A stretch of DNA of 64,000 nucleotides from Parcubacteria group bacterium (GCA_028286565.1 JAQBRH010000004.1:33951-97950), one strand, 5' to 3'. Shown: positions 20,003 to 58,069, counted from the stretch's first letter. The notes: generated by a model from the letters alone, not told the origin. Numbers and translations are program-made.

Positions 20003-20400
20003 TATAGTGTGTTACCCGAGAAAGAGGACGGTTCGGCCGTCCGGCAGTTCTTGTAGTCCTGATCCATAGAATTATCGCGCATGATGATCGCCTCATTGCC
20101 CTTGTTCCAAAAGACAAGCGACTCGTCCGCATTCGCATAGCGCGCCCCGGAAGCGGAGATCGCTTGGGGAAGATAGAGAGTTTTCTGTCCGCCGAATTCC
20201 AGATGGACCGAGCGCGGATAAAACTCCGCAAAGATCTCCCGGCTGTCGCATGTAAACGTCGCGGTGGAGAGAGGAGTACCCAGGATAAACACCGTTTGGA
20301 ACTTTCGGCCGAGCTGAAATCCTACGAGCAATACGGCCACAAAAAGGATAATGGCCATGGCCTGAGAGAGCGGAGTTACCCTGTTCCAGACGATCTTCAT
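20002..20400 (-). CDS. MliC-family (membrane-bound lysozyme inhibitor of C-type lysozyme)-like protein
   Basis: LPQAISASGARY and FWNKGNEAI motifs typical of the MliC family. N-terminal anchor. Start codon overlaps the PMM stop. Confidence 0.55.
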   Translation of the reverse strand: MKIVWNRVTPLSQAMAIILFVAVLLVGFQLGRKFQTVFILGTPLSTATFTCDSREIFAEFYPRSVHLEFGGQKTLYLPQAISASGARYANADESLVFWNKGNEAIIMRDNSMDQDYKNCRTAEPSSFSGNTL

Positions 20401-20402
20401 AC

Positions 20403-20657
20403 CTATAGAATATCACGAGTTCCCCCGACGAATTCGAGCTTCTGGCCCCGGGTCCATCCCTTGATCTCCGCCTCGCGCTTGGAGGCTGAGCTTCTGTTCG
20501 GGTGTTTTTCGGTGTAGAGCAATTTCTTCACTCCTTTCGATCTCGTATAATGGCCGCCCTTCCCGCCTCGGTGTTCCTTGACCCTTCTTTCCACATCGGT
20601 CGTGATGCCCGTGTACAGCGTCCCGTTTTTACATTCTAAAATATAGACAACATACAT
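20403..20657 (-). CDS. GIY-YIG nuclease family protein (UPF0213-like)
   Basis: MYVVYILECKNGTLYTGITTDVERRVKEH...GWTRGQK; start re-placed at ATG 20657. Its 3' end contains the promoter-half of the array repeat. Confidence 0.7.
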   Translation of the reverse strand: MYVVYILECKNGTLYTGITTDVERRVKEHRGGKGGHYTRSKGVKKLLYTEKHPNRSSASKREAEIKGWTRGQKLEFVGGTRDIL

Positions 20658-20697
20658 GTGCTTTTTTGCAACATGACGCAGGACTCGCATAATCTTG

Positions 20698-20970
20698 TTA
20701 GATAGCCGCCCCGTCGCCCAGATTCATATCCTGTTTATAGCGCTCAATGACTTCAGGATGGTTGCCTTCCTTGCAGTCAGCTACAAACATATCCGCGCTG
20801 GCCGCGTCAGGAAAGCTCATATAGGCCAAGGCGCTCTTGCACACGACATCGATGTTCAACTTCCCCGAGGTGTAGGTTGTGGCCGGAGTGGCTGAAGGAT
20901 TGTTTGCAAAATGGAAATATCCGCCTACTAGGACCGCCCCTACGATGACTGCGAGTAATATGTCTTTCAT
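20698..20970 (-). CDS. Hypothetical small exported protein
   Basis: N-terminal hydrophobic segment, 90 aa, no homology recognised. Confidence 0.45.
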   Translation of the reverse strand: MKDILLAVIVGAVLVGGYFHFANNPSATPATTYTSGKLNIDVVCKSALAYMSFPDAASADMFVADCKEGNHPEVIERYKQDMNLGDGAAI

Positions 20971-20995
20971 ACGGATAATTATAGCATTGTATGGA

Positions 20996-21253
20996 TTAGC
21001 CGGTAGCCAGCAAGATCCAGAGGCAGGCGAAGGCCGCCACGACTAGAATGCCCGCCGCAATCCGATAATTGGGCCTTGCGATCCTAGCGGTTACGAATGT
21101 GTAGGTAAGCCCGAGGAGGACAAAGAACACCCAGGCGAAGATAAAATCTCCCGGACCCCAATTCCATCCGCTCACGTACATGTTCCCAAAAAACGGGATC
21201 AGTAAAGCAGCCGTTGCCCAACGTACGATATTGATAATAGTTCTCTTCTGCAT
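20996..21253 (-). CDS. Hypothetical small membrane protein
   Basis: Three hydrophobic helices. Preceded by repeat R1 including the extended -10 module. Confidence 0.45.
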   Translation of the reverse strand: MQKRTIINIVRWATAALLIPFFGNMYVSGWNWGPGDFIFAWVFFVLLGLTYTFVTARIARPNYRIAAGILVVAAFACLWILLATG

Positions 21254-21260
21254 ATGTTTA

Positions 21261-21304
21261 GGATATCACGAGCCGGTCCAGTGGGCGACGTTGGAACTTT
21301 TATT
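21261..21304. repeat. Array repeat R1 (promoter-half plus conserved core)
   Basis: ggatatcacgagccggtccagtgggcgacgttggaacttttatt. Confidence 0.8.
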
Positions 21305-21342
21305 AAAATAGCCGGCCCTTGAGAGGTCGGCTTCTACAAATA

Positions 21343-21603
21343 CTAGGTACGAGTAGCAAGATTCGTGAGCGCACTGTCGACTCGCTCGAAGAAGCCGGTG
21401 TCTGACTTGCCGGCCAACCTTCGGAGGTCGGCATTCCTTTCGGCGATCGCATGAGCAGCCTCTGCCGGCATCTGGCTTTCCATCAGGATGGCCAGCATGC
21501 CCATCACTTCCCATTTAGTCGTGTATTCGGATTCGACCAGTTGCATATGAGCCTTGTACAAACGCTCTCCGACAACTTCATGAAAAGGACGGGCGCCGAC
21601 CAT
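21343..21603 (-). CDS. Hypothetical protein
   Basis: Start re-placed at ATG 21603 (RBS GAGGTG 5 nt upstream). The listed ORF uses an upstream TTG. Confidence 0.4.
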   Translation of the reverse strand: MVGARPFHEVVGERLYKAHMQLVESEYTTKWEVMGMLAILMESQMPAEAAHAIAERNADLRRLAGKSDTGFFERVDSALTNLATRT

Positions 21604-21680
21604 GATCCACCTCGGTAGTTTGTGAGCGTTCAATTCCTCTGATCAACAGAGTATCATAAATTTATGATAAGTCAATCTTA

Positions 21681-21709
21681 TTGGGTTCTATGGGGCGACG
21701 TTAAACCCT
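21681..21709. repeat. Array repeat R2 (degenerate copy)
   Basis: ttgggttctatggggcgacgttaaaccct aligns to the CTGGCCCTGTGGnACGAAGTTGGAACC core. Confidence 0.5.
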
Positions 21710-21965
21710 AGCTCAAACCAAAGTAGAAAGCGGAAGCTACTACGATCTGAGAGAAGATCGCCAACAACAGTTTCTGAAGGCCCTTCTGTGAAGGGCCGAA
21801 TACATATACCCCAAAAGATACGGCATACAGGATCATGGCCATCACTACAACTATGAGCAAATTCGGACCCTCAGGATCATTGAAGAGCGAGAACATCGTC
21901 CTAGAACATGCAAGGGATGTTATGCCCAGGATGAGCAGCGAGGTCTTTTTTGAATTGAAATTCAT
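21708..21965 (-). CDS. Hypothetical small membrane protein
   Basis: 85 aa, three hydrophobic helices. Confidence 0.4.
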   Translation of the reverse strand: MNFNSKKTSLLILGITSLACSRTMFSLFNDPEGPNLLIVVVMAMILYAVSFGVYVFGPSQKGLQKLLLAIFSQIVVASAFYFGLS

Positions 21966-21979
21966 ATGTGTAAGTATAC

Positions 21980-22025
21980 TAGAAGATCACCGGCTACCCT
22001 GTGGCTCGTACTGAAATTGGCCTTA
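21980..22025. repeat. Array repeat R3 (degenerate copy)
   Basis: agaagatcaccggctaccctgtggctcgtactgaaattggccttat. Confidence 0.5.
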
Positions 22026-22062
22026 TTTGTATATTGCCCTGAAGCGCAGTAAAATTGTGCAC

Positions 22063-22536
22063 ATGATACCAAAAAATACAATTTGTCTCTGGTTCGATAA
22101 GGATGCGGAGGAAGCGGCGAACTTTTATGCCGCCACCTTCCCCGACAGTAAAGTCACGGCGGTTTTTCATGCGCCCGGCGATTTTCCCGGCGGCAAGAAA
22201 GGTGATGTGCTTACGGTAGAATTTACCGTCTGCGGAATCCCGTGCATCGGGCTGAACGGCGGTCCCGTGTTCAAGCAAAGCGAGGCATTCTCCTTCCAGA
22301 TCGCCACGGATGACCAGGAAGAAACTGATCGCTATTGGAATACGATCGTTCAAAACGGCGGACAAGAGAGTGATTGCGGATGGTGCAAGGATCGCTGGGG
22401 AGTATCATGGCAGATCACGCCGCGTACGCTGATCGAGGCCTTCGCCGTCGGAGGGACAGAAGCAGAGCGCGCTTTTGGCGCGATGATGACAATGAAAAAA
22501 ATCGACGTCGCCGCTATCGACGCAGCCCGGGGTTAA
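22063..22536 (+). CDS. VOC-family protein (PhnB/3-demethylubiquinone methyltransferase-like glyoxalase fold)
   Basis: ICLWFDKDAEEAANFYAATFPDS...GIPCIGLNGGP motif pattern. Start re-placed at ATG 22063. Confidence 0.7.
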   Translation: MIPKNTICLWFDKDAEEAANFYAATFPDSKVTAVFHAPGDFPGGKKGDVLTVEFTVCGIPCIGLNGGPVFKQSEAFSFQIATDDQEETDRYWNTIVQNGGQESDCGWCKDRWGVSWQITPRTLIEAFAVGGTEAERAFGAMMTMKKIDVAAIDAARG

Positions 22537-22545
22537 AATTGGTTG

Positions 22546-22575
22546 CTGGCCCTGTGGGCAAAGTTGGAACTTATG
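22546..22575. repeat. Array repeat R4 (core only, no promoter-half)
   Basis: gctggccctgtgggcaaagttggaacttat; overlaps the DoxX stop codon and faces a convergent gene. Confidence 0.8.
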
Positions 22576-23014
22576 TAGTCCTCAGTCCTAGTTCCCCTCT
22601 TCTGCTTTGTAGCGCCAATATAGCCAGAACCAGAGCATAGACAATATGCTCATCAATTAGAGGATTATTGGCTGGAGGAAACAATGACAGCCACATCAAA
22701 AGCATCATCACGATCCCCGCAACCGCGCCCCACATCACACATCTATTTACCAAGAGAGTTACGCCGACAAACAAAAGACCGAGCATGAACAGCCAATCAA
22801 TGGCCGGCACGCCAGACAGGCTCTTAAACAATGGCACCAAAGGTCCGTGCGTACCAAAGCTTAAAAATCCAGATGTCGGAGAACCTCCTCTTATCCATGC
22901 ATTTTCGCTCTTTGTAGAAAAGCCTAATCCGAACACCTTATCGATAAAAGCCCACAAGAAGATGAATGACATCACAAAACGAAGCTTAAGAAATGCGATT
23001 TTTGATATGTTCAT
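22571..23014 (-). CDS. DoxX-family membrane protein
   Basis: Four TM helices with DoxX-like spacing. Confidence 0.6.
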   Translation of the reverse strand: MNISKIAFLKLRFVMSFIFLWAFIDKVFGLGFSTKSENAWIRGGSPTSGFLSFGTHGPLVPLFKSLSGVPAIDWLFMLGLLFVGVTLLVNRCVMWGAVAGIVMMLLMWLSLFPPANNPLIDEHIVYALVLAILALQSRRGELGLRTT

Positions 23015-23086
23015 TTATACAGTCTACGCCTTTTATCCATTTTTCTATATACTTCACCTAGGCTAGTACATTCACTGGAGGTATGT

Positions 23087-23677
23087 ATGACTGCACAAAT
23101 AAGCCTTACCCAACACGACGCTTCCAAGCTGCCACGCCTGGCTGCCGACCTATGGAGGATCGCGAACGGATATGGCTTTCATCCAGCCAAGGATGGGCGC
23201 TTCGAGAACGAAGCGGCAAGGGCTGACTTTGCCCACCGCCTTGATGATTTTATCTCTCATCATCTGGTACTTAAGCCGGAAGCTCCCTGCACATCTCGCA
23301 CTCTCCGCCATTTCATGGAGATGGAACGCAGACCGGTTCAGAGAAAAGAAGCCCTCGAACTGAAGAAGATAAACGAGCTCACCCTTGCCTGGGCGGCCTG
23401 CCTTCTCCTCAAGGGCTACCGGGGGCTCACCCGAGGGGAAGCGTTGAATACTCTGAAAGTCCTGGCAATTCAACTCCTTGAGAAGTTCGGATATCCGCTC
23501 CAACCCTATCGGGCGATGTTCTGTCCGATCCTAAACGCTTGGGAGAACGAAAAGGATTGGGCGGTGATACTTTCGAACGATACGGGGGTGATACAAGAAA
23601 CGCCTTGTTCATCGACCTTGGTCGTCCTACCTGACGTATGCAAGCAGTGCGTCGAAGAACATACGACCGTTCGATAG
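23087..23677 (+). CDS. Hypothetical protein
   Basis: 196 aa, RBS GGAGG upstream. Opposite orientation to neighbouring array genes. Confidence 0.5.
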   Translation: MTAQISLTQHDASKLPRLAADLWRIANGYGFHPAKDGRFENEAARADFAHRLDDFISHHLVLKPEAPCTSRTLRHFMEMERRPVQRKEALELKKINELTLAWAACLLLKGYRGLTRGEALNTLKVLAIQLLEKFGYPLQPYRAMFCPILNAWENEKDWAVILSNDTGVIQETPCSSTLVVLPDVCKQCVEEHTTVR

Positions 23678-23701
23678 CTCGACGGTCTTTTTATCTATTT
23701 T

Positions 23702-23736
23702 TACGAGCCGGCCCTGTGGTACGAAGTTGGAACTGC
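23702..23736. repeat. Array repeat R5
   Basis: tacgagccggccctgtggtacgaagttggaactgct; abuts the stop of 23736..24137. Confidence 0.8.
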
Positions 23737-24137
23737 TATACCTTAGGCATTTCAGCTATAAATGCAAACAATTCCCAAATATGACCATTAATATCGCGAA
23801 ATGCTTTTCCATACATAAAAGCTTCAGATTCGGGACTATCCTTTGTTACGTCTACAGCACCGGACGTAGTAGCTTTTTCAAAGAAAGCATCTACTTCACT
23901 CTTTGAATCAAACTGTAATGCAATGGTCAGGTTATTATTGATTGCTTCCGGATTACCTCCGACAAAAGTTGCAAATCGCTTGTCCTCCAACAACATAACA
24001 AAAGTATTTTCGTTGATCTTTGCATTAGTGGTATCTTCACTGCTGAATTGTTCATTCTTCACCATTCCTAGCGATGCAAAGAATGTATCAGTGTCAGCAA
24101 CATTTCTAATCGGCAAGTTAATGTATGTATTTTTCAT
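23736..24137 (-). CDS. VOC/glyoxalase-bleomycin-resistance family protein
   Basis: INLPIRNV...FFASLGM and ...HIWELF VOC-type beta-alpha-beta-beta-beta modules. AT-rich coding sequence. Confidence 0.6.
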   Translation of the reverse strand: MKNTYINLPIRNVADTDTFFASLGMVKNEQFSSEDTTNAKINENTFVMLLEDKRFATFVGGNPEAINNNLTIALQFDSKSEVDAFFEKATTSGAVDVTKDSPESEAFMYGKAFRDINGHIWELFAFIAEMPKV

Positions 24138-24163
24138 ATATAAAAGTATATCAAGAAAACCTC

Positions 24164-24197
24164 CAGCTGGTCCTGTGGGACGAAGGTGGAACCATTC
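24164..24197. repeat. Array repeat R6
   Basis: ccagctggtcctgtgggacgaaggtggaaccatt. Confidence 0.8.
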
Positions 24198-24209
24198 TAG
24201 GGCAGGTCC

Positions 24210-24572
24210 CTATTCCTCAGGTTCATCATTGATACCCAGCTTTGATTGAATAGCTTGTCGTATCCACCACGTCGCATAGGTTGAGAATTTATAATCAGCT
24301 TTATAATCATATTTTTCCACGGCTTTAAAAAGGCCCAGGTTACCATTTTGAATAAGATCCAATTGAGAAACATTCTGCTCGTTGTCTTTGTATGCTTCCG
24401 CAATCTTCGCTACTAATCGCAAATTCCCCTTGGCTAAAAGATTCTTTGCTTCATCATCATTATTTTCCTTAATTCTTTTAGCCAGCTTTTTCTCTTCTTC
24501 ACCGGAAATAAGTAGATATGCTGATATCTCATTAAGGTAATCTTCTAATTTTTCCTGTTCAGTTTTTTCCAT
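24210..24572 (-). CDS. Truncated sigma-70-like protein (regions 1.2-2.4 only; possible fragment or decoy)
   Basis: NLRLVAKIAEAY...LDLIQNGNLGLFKAVEKYDYKADYKFSTYATWWIRQAIQ matches RpoD region 2. Only 120 aa; lacks regions 3-4. Confidence 0.6.
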   Translation of the reverse strand: MEKTEQEKLEDYLNEISAYLLISGEEEKKLAKRIKENNDDEAKNLLAKGNLRLVAKIAEAYKDNEQNVSQLDLIQNGNLGLFKAVEKYDYKADYKFSTYATWWIRQAIQSKLGINDEPEE

Positions 24573-24623
24573 GATATGTATCTAAACGTTTATTCACTAG
24601 GATGCTTTCCCTTTAAAATCATA

Positions 24624-24660
24624 AGAGCCAGCCATGTGGGACGATGTTGGAACCTTTTTT
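24624..24660. repeat. Array repeat R7
   Basis: agagccagccatgtgggacgatgttggaacctttttt. Confidence 0.8.
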
Positions 24661-24662
24661 AA

Positions 24663-25193
24663 CTATTCCTGAGGAAAACCATACTTCTCACGTATTTCCC
24701 TAGTGTATTGCTCTATTGGTTCTAATCCAATCTCTGCCCTTCTTTCGTCAACGTGTTTTTCATCTTCTATAGGCTCAGGTCTGAAGTTTCCATCCCTATC
24801 TCTAAATTGAGTTCCGTAAACCTGTAAACCATGCTCACTTACTCGTATTCGATCTTCTAAGTACGCAACATGTTTTCTATCTACCTCCTCGGGCGATTCT
24901 GCTTTCATAAGTTCAAGACACTTTTTTTGAAAATCTTTATCGTGATCTGCGTGTTGAATTAATAGCCATGCATTACGAACACCTATTGCTCCAACTTTAG
25001 ATGTAGTGGGCCATCCGATTTCAACAACAATTTCCTTTAATCTTTCTGTATTTCTTTTATCAATTTCGTTATCCCAATACTCATCATCTACAAGATTCTT
25101 TTCTCGCATATCTTGGTCTACCTTAACCATTGTTTCTAATTCAGAAGCGATCTCTGGATTAAGCATGACTTTAGGAGTTTCTTCATTATTCAT
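24663..25193 (-). CDS. Hypothetical protein
   Basis: 176 aa, acidic. GWPT...NAWLLIQHADHD motif. No family assigned. Confidence 0.5.
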   Translation of the reverse strand: MNNEETPKVMLNPEIASELETMVKVDQDMREKNLVDDEYWDNEIDKRNTERLKEIVVEIGWPTTSKVGAIGVRNAWLLIQHADHDKDFQKKCLELMKAESPEEVDRKHVAYLEDRIRVSEHGLQVYGTQFRDRDGNFRPEPIEDEKHVDERRAEIGLEPIEQYTREIREKYGFPQE

Positions 25194-25200
25194 ATACCTA

Positions 25201-25246
25201 GAATATCACGAGCTGGGCCCTGGGGTACGAAGCTGGAACCTATTTT
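25201..25246. repeat. Array repeat R8 (promoter-half plus core)
   Basis: gaatatcacgagctgggccctggggtacgaagctggaacctatttt. Confidence 0.85.
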
Positions 25247-25827
25247 ACAGCTATAAAGTGAAAAACATGCCAGTGCTTCGTCTCTCCCGCAGCAGTTTTG
25301 CCATCTTTTTCTTCTTCACTGAACTCCGCAATCTTTAGTCCCTGCAGCAATGACTCCGCCTCTTCTTTAGTCTGAAATGTCATATCTCTACCTTCTACAT
25401 TCCACTCATCTCTATCTCCGAAGAATTGTCCGACAAATACACCGCCTGGTTTTAACGACTTAATAATTGATTGAATAACATCATTAAATTTTCCTTTAGA
25501 AGTAAACGGTAAAGAATACTGAGCGTTAATCAGATCATACGCACCTTCTACAAAATCAAAATCTTCAAAAGAACTTATTTCGTATGTGACTTTTTCGGCG
25601 GGAAGTTGCTCGAGCACTTCTCCAGAGACTGGGTTCTTATCGACAGCTGTAACATGCTCAAATCCTACAGACAAAAGATACCTCGTATCATTAAGTGCCC
25701 CTGATCCAAGATCCAATGCTTCATGTTTGTCTTGAACTAATTCGACAGCGTTAACCAAAGAAGGTCTTGGTGGCGTTTCTTTAGTTTGTTCGTAGTATTG
25801 CTCCCAGTTATGTTCACTCATGGGCAT
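25240..25827 (-). CDS. Class I SAM-dependent methyltransferase (TehB-like)
   Basis: LDLGSGALNDTRYLL motif I, VTAVDKNP, LKPGGVF. Confidence 0.7.
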   Translation of the reverse strand: MPMSEHNWEQYYEQTKETPPRPSLVNAVELVQDKHEALDLGSGALNDTRYLLSVGFEHVTAVDKNPVSGEVLEQLPAEKVTYEISSFEDFDFVEGAYDLINAQYSLPFTSKGKFNDVIQSIIKSLKPGGVFVGQFFGDRDEWNVEGRDMTFQTKEEAESLLQGLKIAEFSEEEKDGKTAAGETKHWHVFHFIAVK

Positions 25828-25837
25828 ATGATATCAG

Positions 25838-25878
25838 AATTTCGCTAGCTGGCCCTGGGATGAGGTTGGAACCTTTAT
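25838..25878. repeat. Array repeat R9
   Basis: gaatttcgctagctggccctgggatgaggttggaacctttat. Confidence 0.8.
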
Positions 25879-26399
25879 ACCGTAACAATCTTCAGATCTG
25901 CCGTATCAATTGTGCCTTTATAGAGAATATGAGGAACCAGATGGAATCCCATGGGGATCATGCCTGCTTCAATAGTTTCCTTATAGTATTCAGTGGTTGC
26001 CTCCGGTAGATAGGCATATTTCTCGACTTCATTCGGATCATAGGCCAGATAATCATCTTCTGGAGGAGGAGTCCCCTTTTCGCGTGGGGAGTTTAAATAC
26101 ACCACAGTCTTTTCTAGCTCTAGCTTTTCTGCAGGGATCTCAACATAACTTAAGGCGAAACCTTTTCCCAACTTCCGCATTTCCCTATCAACAATGCTCG
26201 GATTCAATGCACTCAGATGAAGTACGTCGTTCCACAAACAACCCAGCCTCTTTATTCTTCTTTGCAACAAAATTTCACGGCCTTCGTACTTCTTTACATG
26301 TGCCTGATACGCATCGGGGAAAATGTTTTTAAGCGTATTCAAGGGATATAGTACGGTTCCCTGCATTCCTTTGGGAACTATATGATAGACGAATGCCAT
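25875..26399 (-). CDS. Hypothetical protein
   Basis: 174 aa. No repeat between it and the downstream isochorismatase gene, suggesting a two-gene unit. Confidence 0.5.
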   Translation of the reverse strand: MAFVYHIVPKGMQGTVLYPLNTLKNIFPDAYQAHVKKYEGREILLQRRIKRLGCLWNDVLHLSALNPSIVDREMRKLGKGFALSYVEIPAEKLELEKTVVYLNSPREKGTPPPEDDYLAYDPNEVEKYAYLPEATTEYYKETIEAGMIPMGFHLVPHILYKGTIDTADLKIVTV

Positions 26400-26429
26400 A
26401 TGGGAGTAGTGTAACAGAAATTCGTTTAA

Positions 26430-26936
26430 TCAAAACTTGATCAAGAGATCCGCTGTATTTTCATAAAAAGACGTATGGGCCTTAAACCAGGTCTTATTTT
26501 TACGAGACAACCTTCCCTCCTTGTTGCTTACACTAGCTATAAGACTCTCTGCCGTTGAAACTTTATAGCCTCTTTTCATTGCTCCTATTGCTGTATCCTG
26601 AACGCATGCATTGGCATTAACTCCAATAATAATGAGGTTCTTTATCTTTAGGCTACGAAGAATTTTATCCAGATGGGTTTTTGTGAATCCACTATTGCTC
26701 TCCTTAATGATTATTTCTTCCGCGACTTTGCGAATTAATTTTTCTAATATAGGAGTTGTTCTTCCTCTGTCTTTGCCTCCAGCTTTATACTCAAAAACAA
26801 CCACCGGAATATTTTCTTTTATGCATCTACGAAGGATCTTACCTTGCTCTGCAATTAATTTTTCCTTAATATGAGCAGGAAAATTCTTTAGGAAAAAATC
26901 CTGCATATCCATCACAACGACTGCGGCATTCTTCAT
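26430..26936 (-). CDS. Isochorismatase-family cysteine hydrolase
   Basis: VVVMDMQ, conserved Lys, and the GVNANACV catalytic Cys motif. Confidence 0.7.
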   Translation of the reverse strand: MKNAAVVVMDMQDFFLKNFPAHIKEKLIAEQGKILRRCIKENIPVVVFEYKAGGKDRGRTTPILEKLIRKVAEEIIIKESNSGFTKTHLDKILRSLKIKNLIIIGVNANACVQDTAIGAMKRGYKVSTAESLIASVSNKEGRLSRKNKTWFKAHTSFYENTADLLIKF

Positions 26937-26960
26937 ATTTTAAGTATACCAGCACAAGTT

Positions 26961-27000
26961 TCGCTAGCTGGCCCTGTAGTACGATGTTGGAACCTTTGTA
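26961..27000. repeat. Array repeat R10
   Basis: tcgctagctggccctgtagtacgatgttggaacctttgta; followed (minus strand) by TGGTATACT extended -10 and a leaderless ATG. Confidence 0.8.
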
Positions 27001-27042
27001 GAAAAAGAAAAAGACCGCCTGTAAGCGATCTGCTAGTCAGAA

Positions 27043-27450
27043 TCACAGTCCTCCAAAAACATGGAGACTGTCCTTTCCCGAAGAACCTCTTGGATAGTAT
27101 TCCAGCGTGAACTCCACTGAATCTGGCATGCCTTCTGGAAGATGAGCGATCTGGTTTCCACGATACGGGATACCCCGAAAGAAGATGTTTATGAGCGATG
27201 TCAAAGCGTCAGCGATCTCTTCTTTTGAAAATTGGAAACGCTCTGAGTCAGAGATTTCACGCGGATCAGTTCCCCTCTTTGTTTCCTTCCCTATTACCTC
27301 CGCACTTATTTCAACTTCGAGGATTTCGGGTGGTACAAAGGAAGACCGAGCGATCCTGTAAGGAAAAAATACATGCCCAGTTCTCCTTGCGATGAATTCA
27401 GCAATCGCATCACCGAATTGCTGGGCAGCAATTCTTTCGTAATCAGGCAT
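27043..27450 (-). CDS. Hypothetical protein
   Basis: Start re-placed at ATG 27450 (MPDYERIAAQQ). The listed ORF starts at a TTG. Confidence 0.45.
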   Translation of the reverse strand: MPDYERIAAQQFGDAIAEFIARRTGHVFFPYRIARSSFVPPEILEVEISAEVIGKETKRGTDPREISDSERFQFSKEEIADALTSLINIFFRGIPYRGNQIAHLPEGMPDSVEFTLEYYPRGSSGKDSLHVFGGL

Positions 27451-27527
27451 AACACCTTCCAAGGCAAGATGTGGTCTGTGGTAGAACTTATCTGGTAATT
27501 AAAATACTACTTATTACAGTAAAGTCA

Positions 27528-27562
27528 AGTTGCTGGCCCTGTGGCACGAAGTTGGAACTTAT
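27528..27562. repeat. Array repeat R11
   Basis: agttgctggccctgtggcacgaagttggaacttat; followed (minus strand) by TTGACT-N16-TATTTT promoter-like sequence. Confidence 0.8.
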
Positions 27563-27565
27563 ATA

Positions 27566-27590
27566 AAAACCCAGGATTACCTGGGCGTTG
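27566..27590 (-). terminator. Rho-independent terminator at the 3' end of 27577..27792
   Basis: CCCAGG-ATTA-CCTGGG hairpin followed on the minus strand by TTTTTAT; overlaps the stop codon. Confidence 0.5.
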
Positions 27591-27792
27591 TAGAAGGCGC
27601 TTTGTAATTCGGCTGCGCCTCTGGTAGATCAAGCAGTGTTCTAGCCACAAGGGCACACACAAGAGCACAGAGAACAAATGTAACTCTCGTACTCTTTTGC
27701 TTGAATGTTACTCCCTTCATGAAAAGCAGGAGGGCGAGGAGGCCAAGGATCAAAGAAGCGGCAAGCGGGTGTGCAAACATGTGTTTCTCCAA
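27577..27792 (-). CDS. Hypothetical small membrane protein
   Basis: 71 aa, two hydrophobic helices, RBS GGAGA upstream. Confidence 0.4.
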   Translation of the reverse strand: MEKHMFAHPLAASLILGLLALLLFMKGVTFKQKSTRVTFVLCALVCALVARTLLDLPEAQPNYKAPSTTPR

Positions 27793-27864
27793 AAGATGTG
27801 AAGATTCTACTGCCAGGGGTCGTTTCTGAATATAAATTACAACTAAAAAAGTCTTAAGTCAAAT

Positions 27865-27900
27865 CTGCTGGCCCTGTGGTACGAAGTTGGAACTTTTTAA
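27865..27900. repeat. Array repeat R12
   Basis: ctgctggccctgtggtacgaagttggaactttttaa; followed (minus strand) by TTGACT-N17-TAATTT. Confidence 0.8.
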
Positions 27901-28382
27901 AGCTTCCCTCTTAATTCCAAGGCTCTTTCCATTATCCTTTCGCCTCTCTTCCCCCAATCAAAGTATTGCTTATATTCCTTAGGATCAATAAGTTTTATTT
28001 CTTCTATCTCGTTATCTGGATCTTTCACAAAATCACCATAAGGTTCAACTATACAAACACTCCTTGTCTGCCTAATAATTCTCCCCGGCTCATAAACATC
28101 TTGGAAACCTATTAGCGATTGGCTGAGAACTCGCATATTAGTTTCTTCCCTTACCTCCCGGATCACTGCTTCTTCATATGTTTCTCCTGGCTCTATTCCT
28201 CCGCCTGGCGGCATCCAGCCACTTTTTGGGTGATGGACTACTACCATTTTATCTCCATAGAAACAGAAAGCATGAACCCCTTGGAGCAACTTCCCTTCCA
28301 TATCAAATAACGGGTCTGATTCTTTATATATAATTTCAACTTCCTGACCCAATCTGTTTACATGAATAGATTTAATTTCCAT
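27897..28382 (-). CDS. NUDIX hydrolase
   Basis: NUDIX box GGGIEPGETYEEAVIREVREETNM. Confidence 0.75.
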   Translation of the reverse strand: MEIKSIHVNRLGQEVEIIYKESDPLFDMEGKLLQGVHAFCFYGDKMVVVHHPKSGWMPPGGGIEPGETYEEAVIREVREETNMRVLSQSLIGFQDVYEPGRIIRQTRSVCIVEPYGDFVKDPDNEIEEIKLIDPKEYKQYFDWGKRGERIMERALELRGKL

Positions 28383-28390
28383 CAGTTAAG

Positions 28391-28435
28391 ACTACCACGA
28401 GCTCGCCCTGTGGTACGAAGTTGGAACCTTTTTAC
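28391..28435. repeat. Array repeat R13 (promoter-half plus core)
   Basis: actaccacgagctcgccctgtggtacgaagttggaacctttttac. Confidence 0.85.
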
Positions 28436-28516
28436 AACCTTCTATTATTGACAACATCTAGGACATGATTCATATTGAACCCAGAGTACAACCCAACAAC
28501 GAATAGGAGACAAGAC

Positions 28517-28768
28517 ATGTCGAACGAGAAGTATTTCCGAGATCTGGCACCTGGGGAATTGTTTTCCTTCCAGTCGCCCACTTCCGATCCAGTCGTGGAG
28601 CCGGCCTCATACCTCGTCAAACTGAATGAGGATGAGTATCTGATGGAGCGAGGACATGGAACATTGCGCTTCATGAACTTCGAAAAGTCTCGCACTCTAG
28701 TAGTGAGCCACGGCATGGAAGACCAGGCCAATTTCGAACAGATGCTCGCTGCTTGGCCAAGGGAATAA
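28517..28768 (+). CDS. Hypothetical protein (opposite orientation inside the array)
   Basis: RBS AGGAGA 7 nt before ATG 28517. Preferred over the overlapping minus-strand ORF 28432..28791 on composition and RBS. Confidence 0.4.
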   Translation: MSNEKYFRDLAPGELFSFQSPTSDPVVEPASYLVKLNEDEYLMERGHGTLRFMNFEKSRTLVVSHGMEDQANFEQMLAAWPRE

Positions 28769-28782
28769 TCCCCGGCCCCTAC

Positions 28783-28830
28783 TTCCCACACATTCGCTTA
28801 ATTGAAAGGTGTGGGGATTTTCATAACTAA
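28783..28830. terminator. Bidirectional terminator between convergent genes
   Basis: CCCACAC...(19 nt)...GTGTGGG hairpin followed by GATTTTCAT. Confidence 0.45.
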
Positions 28831-28863
28831 AATAATCGAACGCCTGGTACTAAGTTTTAGAAT

Positions 28864-29367
28864 TTAGAGAACACACTTCCTAAGGACATCTGCAGCAATG
28901 CGACAATCTTCAAGCGCATCGTGCGACCCTCTTGGTTTTGCACCAAAAGCTTGAAAAATATCTTCAGAATTCATCCCTCCCTGGTAGCCGGTTTTAAGTA
29001 GATGAGTGTAAGCGATAGGCCAAATATCCAACACATGATAGTCATACTGTTCTTCTCCATTTCTTGAAGCTGTAAGCGTTCTTAAATGCTTCATGTCGAG
29101 CTCAGCCACAAATGAAGCGATGATCACATTGCTTCCGAATCTTTCAAAGAATTCTTGTCCTACTTCTGCTTGAGATGGAGCACCATTAAGCATCTCTTGA
29201 GTGATGCCGGACTTTACACTTGATCTCCCCTGCAGATTTGCGTGTATATAACTCACAAAAGAATCTTTTTCAGCCAGAGTGTCTTTATCTAGGAGAATGG
29301 CACCTATTTGTTTTGGTGCTCTCATTCCTTCAAAATCTATAACCAAAATATCTTTGGGGAATTTCAT
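28864..29367 (-). CDS. DEDDh-type 3'-5' exonuclease domain protein (RNase T/oligoribonuclease-like)
   Basis: VIDFEG N-terminal acidic motif and a C-terminal HDALEDCR motif. Confidence 0.55.
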   Translation of the reverse strand: MKFPKDILVIDFEGMRAPKQIGAILLDKDTLAEKDSFVSYIHANLQGRSSVKSGITQEMLNGAPSQAEVGQEFFERFGSNVIIASFVAELDMKHLRTLTASRNGEEQYDYHVLDIWPIAYTHLLKTGYQGGMNSEDIFQAFGAKPRGSHDALEDCRIAADVLRKCVL

Positions 29368-29370
29368 ATC

Positions 29371-29420
29371 TCTAGAATATCACGAGCTGGCCCTGTGGGA
29401 CGAAGTTGGAACCTTTTTAG
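29371..29420. repeat. Array repeat R14 (promoter-half plus core)
   Basis: tctagaatatcacgagctggccctgtgggacgaagttggaacctttttag; fills the whole 49-nt stop-to-start gap. Confidence 0.85.
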
Positions 29421-29842
29421 CTGTTTGACTCTTTGAAATCTCCAAATGCTTTACGGATAACGTCAAGTAAGGGCTTCTTATCTGCATAAACATATTCTTT
29501 GCCCACCCTTCGAACGAATTCCTCTGGACCAACTGGCCATCCATAAAATTCTAAGGTCTCTCGATTTTGTGTTAAAAGATGAGAAAGAGTTTCAGGTTCA
29601 TATACAAACAAAGCTCCTTGGGTACCAATTAAAGTTGTGTCTCTATTTGTGAGTAGAACAGGAATTAAGCCATTTTCTTTTGCATGATCAATTTCTTCTT
29701 GAACAGAAATATGAAAATATCTCTCCATAGAATCAACGGGTAAATATCCTACGGATTTGTGAGGGCCGAGATTGCGAATGTGTTCAAGGGCTTCTAACCT
29801 TTCTTTCTCAAATAGATCAGATGCGGTTGGTTCTTGCTCCAT
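29417..29842 (-). CDS. Hypothetical protein
   Basis: 141 aa, AT-rich coding. Last gene of the array before the tRNA-Gln region. Confidence 0.45.
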   Translation of the reverse strand: MEQEPTASDLFEKERLEALEHIRNLGPHKSVGYLPVDSMERYFHISVQEEIDHAKENGLIPVLLTNRDTTLIGTQGALFVYEPETLSHLLTQNRETLEFYGWPVGPEEFVRRVGKEYVYADKKPLLDVIRKAFGDFKESNS

Positions 29843-29859
29843 AGATTAATACTATAACA

Positions 29860-30074
29860 AAGTTCGAGTCCCTATTGGTTGCTGCCGATCAGGGACTCGC
29901 TCCTTACAGGAACAGGACAGAATTCGTCAGGGACTCGGTCACTCATAAAATTCTCCTGAATTTTTGTGCGACCCCGCCTCGGCCCGCCGGCCTCCGGCTT
30001 TCGAGTCCGCGCGACGCTTCGCATGTGCGAAACTGCGCCTGATCGGCAGCAAAACACGCTGCGCTTTCGTTTTG
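29860..30074. repeat. Mosaic of direct and inverted partial copies of the tRNA-Gln 3' end (T-arm/acceptor)
   Basis: 19-nt direct copy gctgccgatcagggactcg at 29881-29899 (identical to 30075-30093). Inverted T-loop fragments at 29862-29873 and 30003-30012. Inverted copy cctgatcggcagcaaaac at 30038-30055 forms an 18-bp hairpin with the tRNA 3' end. Confidence 0.75.
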
Positions 30075-30145
30075 CTGCCGATCAGGGACTCGAACCCCAA
30101 TTAACCGCTCCAGAGGCGGTCGTCCTACCATTAGACGAATCGGCA
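30075..30145 (-). tRNA. tRNA-Gln (anticodon CTG)
   Basis: Hand-folded cloverleaf: acceptor TGCCGAT/ATCGGCA with U1-A72, D-stem GTCT/GGAC, anticodon stem ACCGC/GCGGT with loop CTCTGGA, T-loop TTCGAGT, discriminator G. Four-nt variable loop. Confidence 0.6.
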
Positions 30146-30208
30146 ATTACACACAACAAACCGGCAATACCGGGAAAGAATAGCTTAAAACAAGCCCTAT
30201 TTCAAGGT

Positions 30209-30664
30209 ATGGATCTCGAGTATACTAAGCGCATGAACTGGGAAAAGAAATTCACAGACTCCATCGGGTCTAAAACATCGGTCGTCTTGCACACGATCTT
30301 TTTCATCATCATGCTTGTCCTCCCCTTCTTCGGAGTGCGGGTCGACACGGTCCTCCTCGTCCTGACCACCCTCGTGTCCTTGGAGGCCATATATCTCGCC
30401 ATTTTTATCCAGATATCAGTGAACCAGAACACCGCGAGCCTCGAAGAGGTCGAAGAGAACATCGACGAGATCCAAGAGGATGTCGACGAGATCCAAGCGA
30501 ACGTCGATGAGATCTCCACGGACATCGACGAGATCCAAGGAGATGTGGACGAGATCCAGGAAGACGTGCGAGAGGACAAGGACGCCGAAGGAGACCTCGA
30601 CCACATCCAAGCTATGCTTGAAAAGCTTCTCGAAGAAGTGAACAGATTAAAGAATCAAAAATAA
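30209..30664 (+). CDS. DUF1003-family membrane protein with C-terminal acidic octad repeats
   Basis: SIGSKTSVVLHTIFFIIM...LVSLEAIYLAIFIQISVNQN DUF1003 core. C-terminal (V/I)DEIQxxV x5 encoded by a 24-nt tandem repeat (30457-30576). Start re-placed at ATG 30209, downstream of the tRNA. Confidence 0.55.
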   Translation: MDLEYTKRMNWEKKFTDSIGSKTSVVLHTIFFIIMLVLPFFGVRVDTVLLVLTTLVSLEAIYLAIFIQISVNQNTASLEEVEENIDEIQEDVDEIQANVDEISTDIDEIQGDVDEIQEDVREDKDAEGDLDHIQAMLEKLLEEVNRLKNQK

Positions 30665-30837: not shown

Positions 30838-32520
30838 TCAGGCGGCGTTCGGAGCGAGCTCTTCCGTATGATCGAGCACGGCCACTTTCGGTAGGCGCGT
30901 AGAGAAAAGAAGCGAAAGGAACGAGAAGGCCAGTCCGTAGGCGAGCGCCGTTTTCGAAGCGTCCACGGTCGCCTGGTGAGTGATGGTCGTCAGCTCGTCT
31001 TTAAGAGAGGCGGGTATGTTCGCGTTCTGAAGCGCCGCCACTCCGCCGAATTCGATGTTCGAGGTTTGGGTCGTCACCGCGAGCGCGATGCGGGCTTTCT
31101 CCGCTCTAGGAATAACCCGGCTCTCCGTTACTCCGGTGCCGAGGTTCGAAGAGAGGCTCGAGATCATGACCGCTCCGATGATAGCCGAGCCGAGAGACAT
31201 GCCCACTTGCCTGAACGTATTCGTCACTCCGGCGGCCTCGCCCGACTCCTGGACCGGGAGGGCGGAGAGAGCGAGGTTGTTCGATTGGCCCATGATGAGG
31301 CCCATGCCGAATCCGAAGATCATAAATCCGGGAGCGAAAGCCCATTGCGTCGCCCCAAGGTGAAGGCTTTCTCGGAGCACAAAGAATCCGAGCATGTTGA
31401 GCATAATGCCGAACTGGATAATGTGTTTTGGAGAGATGAGCTTGCCGAGATAGGCGGAGAGCGGAGCGGCGATCAAGATAACGATCGACATGGGGATGAG
31501 CGCGTATCCCGTATGCAGCGGGTCAAGCCCGAGCACCGCCTGAAAATAAACGGGAGCGGAGAACGAAAGGCCCGCCATCCCAAGCGTCATAAGAGCGGTG
31601 ATAATGGTCGCTCCGGTAAATTGCTTATTTTTGAATATAGCCAAAGAGACGAGCGGCGCATCTCCTCTCTTCGCCACTCGCTCTTCGTAGACGGCAAAGA
31701 GGCCGAGGAGGAGAAAGCCGACAAGGATAAAAAACGGCGTCGGAGAGACCCCTCCGAGGTCGACCGCTCTGCCGAACACATCAAAGACTGCTTTGGACTT
31801 CCACCATCCGTACGTCGAGGCTTCGATGAACCCGAAGACGAGAGAGAGAAGACCAAGGGCTGAAAGGACGATGCCTCCGAAGTCTATTCTCTTCTTCATC
31901 GAATTGTCCTTGGCCTCATGGATGATGAACGATCCGAGGATAAGAAGAAGAACCACCAGGATGTTCACTCTGAACGCCCAGCGCCAGCTGTAGTTCGTTG
32001 AAAGCCATCCGCCGACGACCGGACCAAGGGCGGCGGCGGCCGACGCGATCCCTCCCCAAACCCCGAAGGCGAGGGCGAGGTCTCGGCCCTTGTAGCACGA
32101 GCGGAGAAGAGAGACCGTCGCAGGCATCATGAGAGCGGCCCCGATCCCTTCGATGACCGCTTCGCCGAGGATGAGGACGCCTACCGATTGGCTGATCGAA
32201 GTGATGAACGATCCGATCGCAAAGATCACGGCTCCGAGAATGAACATCTTCTTTCTCCCAAAGAGGTCCCCTAGCCGGCCGCCGGTAATGGTGAAGGCGG
32301 CAAGGATGAGCGAATACGCGGTGATCACCCACTGGATCTTTTGGATAGTGGTGTGGAGGTCGGTGATGATCGTTCGCAGGGTCACGTTCAAGATCGTCGT
32401 GTCGAGGATGATGATCGCCAGGGCAAGCGAAAGCACGAACAGCGGGCCCCATTTTTTAAAGAATGAGGCCCGGAAGGCGCTGTCTCCTTCGGCAGGAAGG
32501 GCTTTAAGGGTTTGGTCCAT
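30838..32520 (-). CDS. MFS transporter, DHA2 (EmrB/QacA) drug-efflux family, 14-TMS type
   Basis: 560 aa. GxLaDrxGrkxxl-like motif (GGRLGDLFGRKKMF). Multiple TM helices. Confidence 0.8.
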   Translation of the reverse strand: MDQTLKALPAEGDSAFRASFFKKWGPLFVLSLALAIIILDTTILNVTLRTIITDLHTTIQKIQWVITAYSLILAAFTITGGRLGDLFGRKKMFILGAVIFAIGSFITSISQSVGVLILGEAVIEGIGAALMMPATVSLLRSCYKGRDLALAFGVWGGIASAAAALGPVVGGWLSTNYSWRWAFRVNILVVLLLILGSFIIHEAKDNSMKKRIDFGGIVLSALGLLSLVFGFIEASTYGWWKSKAVFDVFGRAVDLGGVSPTPFFILVGFLLLGLFAVYEERVAKRGDAPLVSLAIFKNKQFTGATIITALMTLGMAGLSFSAPVYFQAVLGLDPLHTGYALIPMSIVILIAAPLSAYLGKLISPKHIIQFGIMLNMLGFFVLRESLHLGATQWAFAPGFMIFGFGMGLIMGQSNNLALSALPVQESGEAAGVTNTFRQVGMSLGSAIIGAVMISSLSSNLGTGVTESRVIPRAEKARIALAVTTQTSNIEFGGVAALQNANIPASLKDELTTITHQATVDASKTALAYGLAFSFLSLLFSTRLPKVAVLDHTEELAPNAA

Positions 32521-39745: not shown

Positions 39746-39995
39746 TGAATTAATATATCAACCAAAATAGAACCTGGCAGATCCTTATATAAGTGTTGCG
39801 GGTACCCGATTTGCACGGATGCCTACAGGTTATGAGCCTGTCGAGGTACTGCTCCTCCAACCCGCTATCCCTATATTATACGCCATCTATTCCAAAAATC
39901 AAGATTTTGTATTATAGTTCCTGGACTTGCCGGTGTACTCTGTACGTCGGCTGCGTTCGGAGATAGAGGGTGTACACATCCTCTCCCCCTCACTT

Positions 39996-40066
39996 GCCGG
40001 TGTAGTTCAATGGTAGAACGGAGGACTCATAAGCCTTAGACAATGGTTCGATTCCATTCATCGGCA
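39996..40066 (+). tRNA. tRNA-Met/Ile2-type (anticodon CAT), elongator-like
   Basis: GCCGGTGTAGTTCAATGGTAGAACGGAGGACTCATAAGCCTTAGACAATGGTTCGATTCCATTCATCGGCA; G1-C72 pair, A31.G39 mismatch in anticodon stem. No encoded CCA. Confidence 0.6.
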
Positions 40067-40197
40067 CAAGGTGTGTTGTGACAGCACAAGAATTCTGTTA
40101 CATTACATCCGATTAGGGCACTTGCGGCAGTACTAAATCGTACATCCGCTCGGCTCGGAATCAATAGAAAAGCAAGCTTCTCAATTGTTCCTCACTT

Positions 40198-40269
40198 GCG
40201 GCTGTAGCTCAACGGTAGAGCACTCCCCTGTCACGGGAGAGGCCGTGGGGTCAGCACCCATCAGCCGCG
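40198..40269 (+). tRNA. tRNA-Asp-like (anticodon GTC) with non-canonical T-loop (GTCAGCA); possibly a pseudo- or atypical tRNA
   Basis: GCGGCTGTAGCTCAACGGTAGAGCACTCCCCTGTCACGGGAGAGGCCGTGGGGTCAGCACCCATCAGCCGCG; good acceptor, D and anticodon arms. T54 and A58 are replaced by G. Confidence 0.45.
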
Positions 40270-40272
40270 CAA

Positions 40273-58068: not shown

Positions 58069-58069
58069 T

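Follow-up and report, generated by a model that had tools for sequence, protein, structure and literature searches.

The 64,000-nucleotide (nt) window of Parcubacteria group bacterium DNA analysed here (GCA_028286565.1, JAQBRH010000004.1:33951-97950) carries core genes, including those for RNase J, LigA, GatA, PrfB, FtsEX and a type IV pilus (assigned mostly by reading the translations of open reading frames, ORFs), and six tRNAs predicted by ARAGORN. Its GC content lies at ~0.53-0.57 and drops to 0.38-0.44 at 24-30 kb, within an array of ~20 ORFs that runs from tRNA-Gln(CTG) down to ~20400 (Table 1). An earlier note on this DNA had described the array as a series of small, AT-rich genes, nearly all on the minus strand, separated by a conserved repeat and ending at the tRNA. 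Seventeen of the ORFs do lie on the minus strand, the other three (U3, U13 and U15) being on the plus strand. Pfam matches were obtained for RNase_T, NUDIX, isochorismatase, SAM methyltransferase, DUF6624, sigma-70 r1.2-r2, VOC-type 3-dmu-9_3-mt and GIY-YIG, in agreement with the functions listed in that note; the remaining array ORFs, including those it had read as DoxX (U14) and as a second VOC/glyoxalase protein (U12), had no Pfam match. The genes form one-directional, mostly single-gene units bounded by a conserved short site, as the note had proposed. This site, a 28-nt repeat referred to here as R28, is the subject of our analysis.

In the sense of the minus-strand genes, R28 reads GGTTCCAACTTCGTCCCACAGGGCCAGC. 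A 26-nt pattern recovered seven copies in the window at ≤3 mismatches, compared to 0.00 expected from 100 shuffles, and looser searches together with profile searches raised the number of clear copies to 12, which span 21272-29413 and are without exception on the minus strand. Two to three degenerate remnants were also present (~21990-22012, ~21680-21705 and ~20405-20426), which bears out the earlier count of 14 copies, 12 of them well conserved. R28 begins 0-20 nt past the stop codon, often overlapping it (TAAAAAGGTTCC), and precedes the next start, again as first described. The remaining 54.6 kb of the window held no full copy, the sole related site being a hybrid behind tRNA-Asp. Across the window and ~860 kb of related loci, R28 was restricted to tRNA-linked arrays and its core was absent outside them. 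R28 is not palindromic and its internal dyad is limited to CCC-ACA-GGG. When 66-nt windows around four copies were folded as either strand, they did not surpass shuffled sequences (z +1.5 to -0.9), and the idea that R28 forms an attC-like hairpin was rejected on these grounds. An Rfam scan of the window returned only tRNAs, with R28 matching no RNA family, and no pair of RYYYAAC/GTTRRRY (R''/R') cores was visible in the sequence. The R28 array is real, non-random and biologically coherent.

Read along the minus strand, a unit consists of a leader, one ORF (two in three of the units), sometimes a hairpin followed by a T-run, and R28. The leaders fall into four types: type A, TCGTGATATTCTAGnnATATG; type B, TAGCGAAAnTCTGGTA...ATG; type C, AACCAATRGGGACTCGAAC...TATAGT...ATG; and type D, a TTGAC box with a -10-like hexamer 16-17 nt downstream, with two units carrying TTGACT-16/17-TAnnnT. 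The gaatatcacgag stretch, which the earlier note had counted as part of the repeat, is instead the start of one of these alternative 5' leaders and contains an extended -10-like TGATATTCT located 6 nt before the ATG. At 13/21 starts, a TANNNT hexamer ends 6-8 nt before the ATG with no Shine-Dalgarno motif; these boxes probably represent leaderless promoters, and the units look self-expressed. Generic scans showed no enrichment for either promoters (14 versus 16.7 expected) or terminators (13 versus 9.1 expected), and only individual sites from them were used. R28 lies past terminators (those of U5 and U6) and between convergent 3' ends (R5 and R4), and its position relative to the promoter-like box that follows is not constant, ranging from overlap to ~5 nt upstream. 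R28 is therefore the 3' end of the upstream unit and not a promoter.

The origin of R28 was apparent from its comparison with the adjoining tRNA. When R28 was globally aligned with the final 23 nt of tRNA-Gln, the best alignment, GGTTC(C/G)A[-----]GTCCC..A..G.CAGC, required a single 5-nt gap, and its score was equalled by only 2/20000 composition-preserving shuffles. Among the six tRNAs of the window, tRNA-Gln was the best match. R28 derives from the tRNA-Gln tail, with one 5-nt insertion. Over the 31 junctions of the window and of seven related loci (described below), information content was 2.0 bits at the final GC and then fell to 0.7-0.0 bits, so that the boundary between conserved and variable sequence coincides with the tRNA 3' end (...CAGC). 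Furthermore, an exact 21-nt copy of the tail, CGAGTCCCTGATCGGCAGCAA, lies 193 nt from the tRNA (2 matches versus 0 expected) and is placed relative to the next leader as R28 copies are. The tRNA had been noted previously as adjoining the array and marking its end; that much stands, whereas the mimicry points to its 3' end as the attachment point, and links the locus to tRNA-targeted site-specific integration and not to a wholly unrelated mechanism. Where the tail copy meets leader type C, the two form a ~41-bp dyad centred on the G of CAGC (GAGTCCCT-17 nt-AGGGACTC); leaders A, B and D, which account for most junctions, have no such dyad. The junction of tail and leader C is apparently an unoccupied attB-like site.

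Related loci were identified by scanning one genome per species for the R28 core, and further loci were reached via homologues of the flanking major facilitator superfamily (MFS) transporter gene (30838-32520, minus strand), whose protein was also found in Logan contigs of run SRR13312974. The core was present in two other Patescibacteria metagenome-assembled genomes (MAGs), JAZKAE01 (four contigs) and JAIFWJ01, with the same architecture and leader types. MFS homologues with 71-87% amino acid (aa) identity led to five loci (L005 and L013-L016), in each of which small genes on the same strand form an array behind a tRNA-Gln(CTG). The same tRNA anchors the array in L010, and tRNA-Thr(TGT) that in L009. 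In total, eight related array loci lie behind tRNA-Gln or tRNA-Thr. A ninth, L023 (MFS 54% identical), whose anchor falls beyond the available DNA, has R28 copies together with longer forms, and was the only R28-containing locus amongst the 80 returned by an MFS-based metagenome scan; two distant loci from that scan had tRNA-Gln(TTG) and no arrays. Anchoring at the tRNA 3' end with partial-tRNA separators holds in the window and in all related loci whose anchor is covered. No matches were found when metagenome contigs were scanned for TCCAACNTCGTNCCACAGGGCC or viral contigs with a looser R28 core. Core matches in Bacillota, Entotheonella, Bacteroidales, Sphaerotilus and Paraflavitalea were discarded as chance occurrences; these were single and isolated, at about the number estimated by hand for a 19-base pattern.

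The junction repeats of the relatives constitute a graded series from tRNA tail to R28. Exact tail copies take the place of R28 at one junction in the window, at two in L005 and at one in L006. The L015 repeat, GGTTCGAGCCCGTGACGGCCAGCCA, occurs beside its own tRNA tail, GGTTCGAATCCCTGTCGGGCAGCCA; L016 has four copies of GTTCGAACATCGTCCCAGACGGCCAGC; L014 has GTTCCAACCTCATCCCAGACAGCCAGC; and the L009 array, behind tRNA-Thr, opens with the hybrid GGTTCGAGTCCCTGAGCCCCAGC joined to TCGTGATATTC. Long-form sites, with a 32-60-nt GC-rich insert between the distal and proximal blocks, were also observed (L006, ~4030-4093; L012, 495-559; L023, 4236-4322 and 4784-4842). The inserts in L006 and L012 fold as hairpins (~-15 kcal/mol, z ~-2).

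Cassette content differs at orthologous loci, and one cassette is common to unrelated neighbourhoods. At all six loci that are orthologous by the flanking MFS gene, tRNA-Gln is followed by an array, yet these arrays differ almost completely in content: when the ORFs of these and the other arrays (10 regions) were compared by blastp, no more than six matches of weak to moderate strength were obtained, of which five had 34-52% aa identity. NUDIX and DUF6624 genes, which are five units apart in the window, are neighbours in L015. An Exo_endo_phos cassette has ~80% nt identity between L006 and L014, from R28 through the leader to the stop, with both neighbours unrelated. Within a single MAG, L005 and L006 remain near-identical along a 155-nt gene-less unit as far as GGCAGC, and are unrelated beginning with the base that follows. 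In the window, GGCAGC runs directly into AACCAATAGGGACTCGAAC (boundary between 29881 and 29880), and at the corresponding position L005 holds one cassette (TAGTGAAAG..., a 150-aa ORF and R28) placed exactly between GGCAGC and AACCAATGGGGACTCGAAC. The L005 insertion has the pattern expected of attB converting to attL and attR. The genes past the type C leader differ between the window and L005, so the two do not form a strict empty/occupied pair.

The array was also polarised. The GC content at third codon positions (GC3) was 0.26-0.43 in the ~12 units nearest the tRNA, 0.58-0.64 in the distal eight, and 0.74 in ten long genes elsewhere in the window. The AT-richness first reported for the array as a whole is therefore a property of its tRNA-proximal units, which are foreign in composition, and the GC3 of array units is far below that of the rest of the window. 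None of the three outcomes that the earlier note had named as refuting its reading (a core spread beyond the array, orthologous arrays of identical content, units of ordinary GC) was thus observed. Unit GC3 increased with distance from the tRNA (rho 0.65, P = 0.002) and the R28 profile score decreased (rho -0.64, P = 0.026). This polarity fits entry next to the tRNA followed by amelioration and site decay, and equally allows that the most distal array genes are simply resident.

The unit directly 3' of tRNA-Gln has no gene. A perfect hairpin of 18 bp, in which the tRNA tail takes part, is found in it alongside GGACTCGAA, an inverted copy of the T-arm, and the core GCCGGAG...CGAGGCGGGGTCGC. This GC-rich core is shared with a second gene-less unit located behind tRNA-Asp(GTC) (40271-40445), and each of the two holds an inverted and a direct copy of the T-arm of its own tRNA. 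Comparable ~155-nt units occur in L005 and L006. The Gln unit had no Rfam match even at E ≤ 1, and the Asp unit had none in a gathering-threshold scan of the whole window. Possible roles for these units are att arms, a decoy site or a small RNA. The tRNA-Asp locus is a minimal second instance of the arrangement, with one cassette ending in a hybrid site whose left half is of R28 type and whose right half resembles the tRNA-Asp tail. Together, this hybrid and the gene-less units show the site to be modular, with a common distal block and a tRNA-specific proximal block.

Table 1 Features of the tRNA-Gln array, the tRNA-Asp instance and the serine recombinase loci. Unless a locus is named, positions are those of the 64,000-nt window.
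Feature	Position	Strand	Remarks
tRNA-Gln(CTG), anchor	30074-30145	minus	ARAGORN; Rfam tRNA, 55.8 bits; 3' end ...GGTTCGAGTCCCTGATCGGCAGC
Gene-less ~172-nt unit directly 3' of tRNA-Gln	29900-30073	minus	Sequence; inverted repeat
Exact 21-nt copy of tRNA-Gln 3' end	29879-29899	minus	Direct repeat, 100% identical
Leader type C, AACCAATAGGGACTCGAAC	29862-29880	minus	Sequence; inverted T-arm copy
U1 ORF, 141 aa	29417-29842		No Pfam match; closed by R14
R28 copy R14	29386-29413	minus	Identical to search core; 32.8 bits; 3' end of U1
U2, DEDDh exonuclease	28864-29367	minus	
U3	28475-28768	plus	
R28 copy R13	28401-28428	minus	Closes two-gene unit U2 + U3
U4, NUDIX	27897-28382		Closed by R12
R28 copy R12	27867-27894	minus	Overlaps stop of U4; then TTGACT-17-TAATTT
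U5, small membrane protein	27577-27780		Closed by R11
R28 copy R11	27532-27559	minus	Past U5 terminator, 27586-27569
U6	27043-27462		Closed by R10
R28 copy R10	26967-26994	minus	Past U6 terminator, 27031-27012
U7, isochorismatase	26430-26936		Same unit as U8
U8	25875-26399		Closed by R9
R28 copy R9	25848-25873	minus	Shorter than core, gapped alignment; closes U7 + U8
U9, methyltransferase	25240-25827		Closed by R8
R28 copy R8	25212-25240	minus	1-nt insertion; 3' end of U9
U10, DUF6624	24663-25193		Closed by R7
R28 copy R7	24627-24654	minus	3' end of U10
U11, sigma-70 r1.2-r2 fragment, 120 aa	24210-24572		Closed by R6
R28 copy R6	24166-24193	minus	3' end of U11
U12	23736-24137		Closed by R5
R28 copy R5	23707-23734	minus	3' end of U12; faces 3' end of plus-strand U13
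U13	23087-23677	plus	
U14	22571-23014		68% aa identity to an ORF in the L005 flank
R28 copy R4	22545-22571	minus	1-nt deletion; 3' end of U14; faces 3' end of plus-strand U15
U15, VOC-type	22027-22536	plus	
U17	21343-21603		Terminator, then R2
R28 copy R2	21272-21298	minus	Degenerate, 16.5 bits; past terminator of U17
U18	20996-21253	minus	Host-like GC; no intact R28 between U18, U19 and U20
U19	20698-20970	minus	As U18
U20, GIY-YIG	20403-20690	minus	As U18
Last R28 remnant	~20405-20426	minus	...GGGGGAA followed by CTCGTGATATTCTATAGGTATG
Minimal second instance, one cassette behind tRNA-Asp	40198-40859	plus	
tRNA-Asp(GTC)	40198-40270	plus	ARAGORN
~180-nt gene-less unit ending in partial tRNA-Asp tail	tail 40446-40455	plus	
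61-aa ORF	40582-40767	plus	Promoter-like box
Hybrid site, AGTTCCAACATCCTCCCCTACCCCGCG	40823-40849	plus	Left half R28-type, right half like tRNA-Asp tail
Repeated original 3' flank of tRNA-Asp, CAAAGAAAAA, and terminator	after hybrid site, within 40198-40859	plus	
Serine recombinase, L097	6040-7326		
Serine recombinase, L099	10001-11284		
Serine recombinase, L100	10001-11374		

Several further features of the array and its surroundings were recorded. U11, which encodes only regions 1.2 and 2 of a sigma-70 factor, is either part of a gene that travels as a cassette or else a free-standing sigma-like (possibly anti-sigma-like) domain. A look-up of other genomic contexts for the first cassette protein gave no record. 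A small GIY-YIG protein, considered as a candidate for the enzyme of the array, occurs at the edge of three arrays (U20 in the window; L015, 14694-14945; L023, 1-212), on differing sides; amongst these array-edge copies, that of the window had a detectable homologue only in L023 (44% aa identity). The GIY-YIG ORF of L015 is flanked on one side by a partial 5' copy of tRNA-Gln and on the other by the real tRNA, in whose D-loop its stop codon falls, a placement that looks like an insertion of the homing-endonuclease type. The partial 5' copies of tRNA-Gln in L014 (11507-11581) and L015 (14600-14693) hold a ~39-nt GC-rich hairpin insert. In the window, ~11-nt 5' duplicates of tRNA-Gln, tRNA-Met and tRNA-Asp occur 60-90 nt upstream of the genes (30160-30172, ~39925-39935 and ~40127-40137). 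A tRNA-Met call by ARAGORN (39795-39866, minus strand) scored below the gathering score of the Rfam tRNA model; arranged back-to-back with the real tRNA-Met (39996-40067), it is possibly a degenerate tRNA or a pseudo-tRNA. The coiled-coil/DUF948-like gene adjoining tRNA-Gln contains five in-frame 21-nt tandem repeats of DEIQxDV-type heptads (30423-30569). A second low-GC patch (58000-62300, GC 0.37-0.39) encodes a 624-aa TPR/adhesin-E-like protein, a DUF2726 protein and small ORFs, and has no R28 copy and no tRNA nearby.

We propose, with a probability of roughly 0.7, that site-specific recombination assembled the locus as a tRNA-anchored array of cassettes that carry no recombinase. In this scheme, the 3' end of tRNA-Gln(CTG) would serve as the fixed chromosomal attachment site, a B-type half-site, at which small circularisable units (leader/promoter, one gene or occasionally two, sometimes a terminator, and R28) are inserted serially by a site-specific recombinase encoded elsewhere and acting in trans. 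R28 would be the cassette-borne left half-site, composed of the same two blocks as the tRNA tail (distal GGTTCSA, proximal GTCCC..A..G.CAGC). Strand exchange would occur within or right at CAGC, leaving the tRNA intact and everything to its right exchangeable. New units would enter next to the tRNA and displace older ones outward, which would then drift to host composition and lose their sites. The circular intermediates, the tRNA-proximal insertion and the identity of the enzyme are the inferred parts of this scheme. A wider formulation, which we put forward tentatively and consider rather unlikely in its entirety, is an undescribed Parcubacteria form of integron-like capture. Here, tRNA 3' ends would act as attI and a double-stranded 28-nt tail mimic with an attP-type 5-bp spacing as attC, whilst a serine recombinase in trans would shuffle promoter-bearing single-gene cassettes and could be retargeted to Gln, Asp or Thr tRNAs via the proximal half-site.

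Which enzyme might act at these sites was assessed from site geometry and from elements found at the same tRNA in other genomes. Measured from the boundary, the GGTTCSA block begins at 23 nt in the tRNA and at 28 nt in R28, with the proximal GTCCC in register. In serine integrases, the motif bound by the zinc-ribbon domain lies 5 bp closer to the centre in attB than in attP, as described for large serine recombinases of the LI/A118, Bxb1 and phiC31 type (PMC3783163). The 5-bp outward shift in R28 resembles this offset in the left half-sites only, and as geometry it is no proof of an enzyme. The shared left half-site motifs, the ~41-bp dyad on the boundary in one junction type and the use of the same tRNA end in relatives are further likenesses to large serine recombinase systems, in contrast to which no such recombinase is linked to any R28 array and most right half-sites are unrecognisable. 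A viral-contig scan with the tRNA tail identified a prophage-like contig (L097) encoding a 428-aa serine recombinase (Resolvase, Recombinase and Zn_ribbon_recom domains) ~110 nt downstream of tRNA-Gln(CTG). This family is highly abundant and strongly conserved in Parcubacteria (at least 8000 matches at E ≤ 1e-30; 78-97% identity among the 120 matches listed). In 3/3 independent contexts (L097, L099 and L100), a serine recombinase gene was located 0.1-2.5 kb downstream of the tRNA-Gln(CTG) 3' end, and a conserved arm, CATATGCTAAGTCAGGnGACTGA, begins directly after the CCA of the tRNA at these loci. Nothing was found of the distal (attR) end of the three islands within the available flanking DNA. 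Cargo beside the serine recombinase genes was defence-like or phage-like (DUF4145, Hypoth_Ymh, ParB-methylase and VRR-NUC). On these comparative grounds, we consider it proven that the tRNA-Gln(CTG) 3' end is a target of serine-recombinase elements in Parcubacteria. That a large serine recombinase, our preferred candidate, also built the R28 arrays is possible, at somewhat less than even odds; a tyrosine integrase with tandem accretion has to be taken seriously as well, at slightly longer odds, and the remaining probability falls to other enzymes.

A number of observations weigh against the proposed scheme, or against a serine enzyme within it. Neither a circular form nor an empty/occupied pair within one population was seen. 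No recombinase domain was detected by Pfam on ~50 ORFs of the window, the other ORFs having only been read by eye, and no recombinase adjoins the arrays in L005, L006, L009, L010, L013-L016 or L023, so that under the proposed scheme the enzyme must act in trans. Neither the window nor any R28 locus contains the arm CATATGCTAAGTCAGGnGACTGA; the L097-type family is therefore not directly tied to R28 and the two are not the same element. Dyad symmetry with R28 is lacking in the right halves of most junctions. Canonical serine integrases do not reuse attL or recombine attP with attL, and repeated insertion by such an enzyme would presumably need a relaxed variant. An exact 21-nt tail duplication is more typical of tyrosine integrases, whose tandem accretion is well known. 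In addition, sites are almost absent from the distal third of the array (20.4-22 kb), where GC is close to that of the host, and this part could consist of ordinary genes. The related data are all MAGs and metagenome contigs, within which L005 and L006 could be two loci or two strains.

Of the alternatives, the one that survives best, although we judge it improbable, is that the array is the decayed residue of successive integrase-carrying islands or prophages (of the tycheposon or serine-recombinase kind) at tRNA-Gln, all of which would have been stripped of the integrase and of most other genes, with R28 copies as att scars and genes that are not individually mobile. Repeats of the tRNA tail, and arrays in which newer elements displace older ones, are known for tycheposons (bioRxiv 10.1101/2020.12.28.424599), and serine-recombinase islands do occupy the tRNA-Gln end in relatives. 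Site decay and GC amelioration grow with distance, and the gene-less ~172-nt unit looks like leftover att arms. However, the locus comprises twelve consecutive one-gene (rarely two-gene) units in which Pfam found no integrase fragment, and the arm of the serine-recombinase islands is missing. Moreover, R28 is not a decayed tail; it has its own consensus, with the same 5-nt insertion across several MAGs and beside unrelated genes, and a single-gene unit is common to two genomes in which its neighbours are unrelated.

Less probable still is the mundane option raised in the earlier note, in which R28 is a lineage-specific intergenic motif (an operator, a promoter UP-like element, an RNA-processing site or a terminator signal) common to co-regulated accessory genes, with no role in recombination. 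R28 does always lie in short intergenic gaps on the coding strand, and the ATG often follows at a fixed 18 nt via a TCGTGATATTCTAG leader that is conserved across MAGs. Such a motif is nevertheless at odds with the absence of R28 from every other intergenic region of the window and with its position past terminators, between convergent 3' ends and at variable spacing to promoter-like boxes. The lack of secondary structure and of an Rfam match argue likewise, and there is no regulatory rationale for its likeness to the tRNA tail, its exchange with exact tail copies or the tRNA-Asp version. A bona fide integron, or a cluster of attC sites lacking an integrase (CALIN), in which an IntI-type tyrosine recombinase encoded outside the window would act on folded, single-stranded attC sites, can be set aside as very improbable: the unidirectional array of small cassettes and its typical integron-cassette gene inventory are countered by the length of the site (28 nt, well under the ~55-140 nt of attC), the lack of R''/R' cores and of a hairpin on either strand, the promoter-like boxes of the units, the absence of intI beside any of ~12 arrays, and an anchor that is a tRNA end and not an attI next to intI. 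The statement in the earlier note that this is no canonical integron, and that the window encodes no integrase, agrees with these results as regards fold, cores and the ORFs scanned for recombinase domains.

The array nevertheless shares the organisation of integrons (IntI/attI/attC, including chromosomal integrons and CALIN) in several respects. These include a single insertion point, ~20 one-directional and mostly single-gene units of accessory genes, a short conserved site with a sharp boundary at the 3' end of each unit, and arrays that differ between relatives. The attC site is an imperfect palindrome with R''/L''...L'/R' cores that acts as a single-stranded hairpin, whereas R28 is an unstructured tRNA-tail mimic; attachment here is at a tRNA 3' end with no adjacent IntI, whereas integrons use attI; and the units appear to carry their own promoters, whereas integron cassettes depend on Pc. 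Other systems resemble the array in different ways. In staphylococcal cassette chromosome (SCC) composite islands, Ccr serine recombinases act at the rlmH 3' end, and ccr-less pseudo-SCC units occur; as here, copies of a housekeeping gene's 3' end stand between tandem units, a number of which lack a recombinase. The Xer/dif system acts at chromosomal dif, a site of 28 bp in which a 6-bp spacer separates two inverted 11-bp arms that bind Xer. Integrative mobile elements exploiting Xer (IMEX) and pdif modules are, like the units described here, recombinase-less tandem elements at one site that rely on a host enzyme, with a 28-nt site of one good and one degenerate arm. In contrast to these, the target here is a tRNA tail and not dif, and R28 has no 11-6-11 dyad and is unlike the dif consensus. 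Repetitive extragenic palindromes (REP), bacterial interspersed mosaic elements (BIME) and miniature inverted-repeat transposable elements (MITE) are palindromic or bounded by terminal inverted repeats and dispersed genome-wide, unlike R28, which occurs only in tRNA-linked arrays. Prochlorococcus tycheposons integrate at tRNAs, with partial tRNA copies between elements and older elements pushed deeper into the island (bioRxiv 10.1101/2020.12.28.424599). The array resembles them in its tRNA anchoring, its partial-tRNA separators, the displacement of older units by newer ones and the degraded distal remnants. Tycheposons, in contrast, are kb-sized, come equipped with a tyrosine or serine recombinase and with replication genes, and occur at 1-2 per genome, whereas the units here are 0.3-1 kb, have no detectable integrase or fragment of one, and are separated by a conserved, modified mimic.

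No description of integrons or cassette arrays in Patescibacteria, or candidate phyla radiation (CPR) bacteria, was found in the searchable literature, and a tRNA-anchored, integron-style capture site without integron machinery nearby looks to be previously undescribed. To our knowledge, few mobile elements have been described in CPR bacteria, which have tiny genomes and whose route of accessory-gene acquisition is poorly understood. The locus suggests a compact, modular route, in which the tRNA tail is a permanent dock at which single genes, each with a promoter and a 28-nt 'ticket', are stacked and turned over with no recombinase cost per unit. If the enzyme is found, this would represent an independent, non-IntI solution to the integron problem, and a simple double-stranded 28-nt site with a defined boundary would be attractive for genome engineering. 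R28-type tRNA mimics would then also be markers with which to locate the flexible gene pool of CPR bacteria in metagenome bins, where breaks in the assembly are common.

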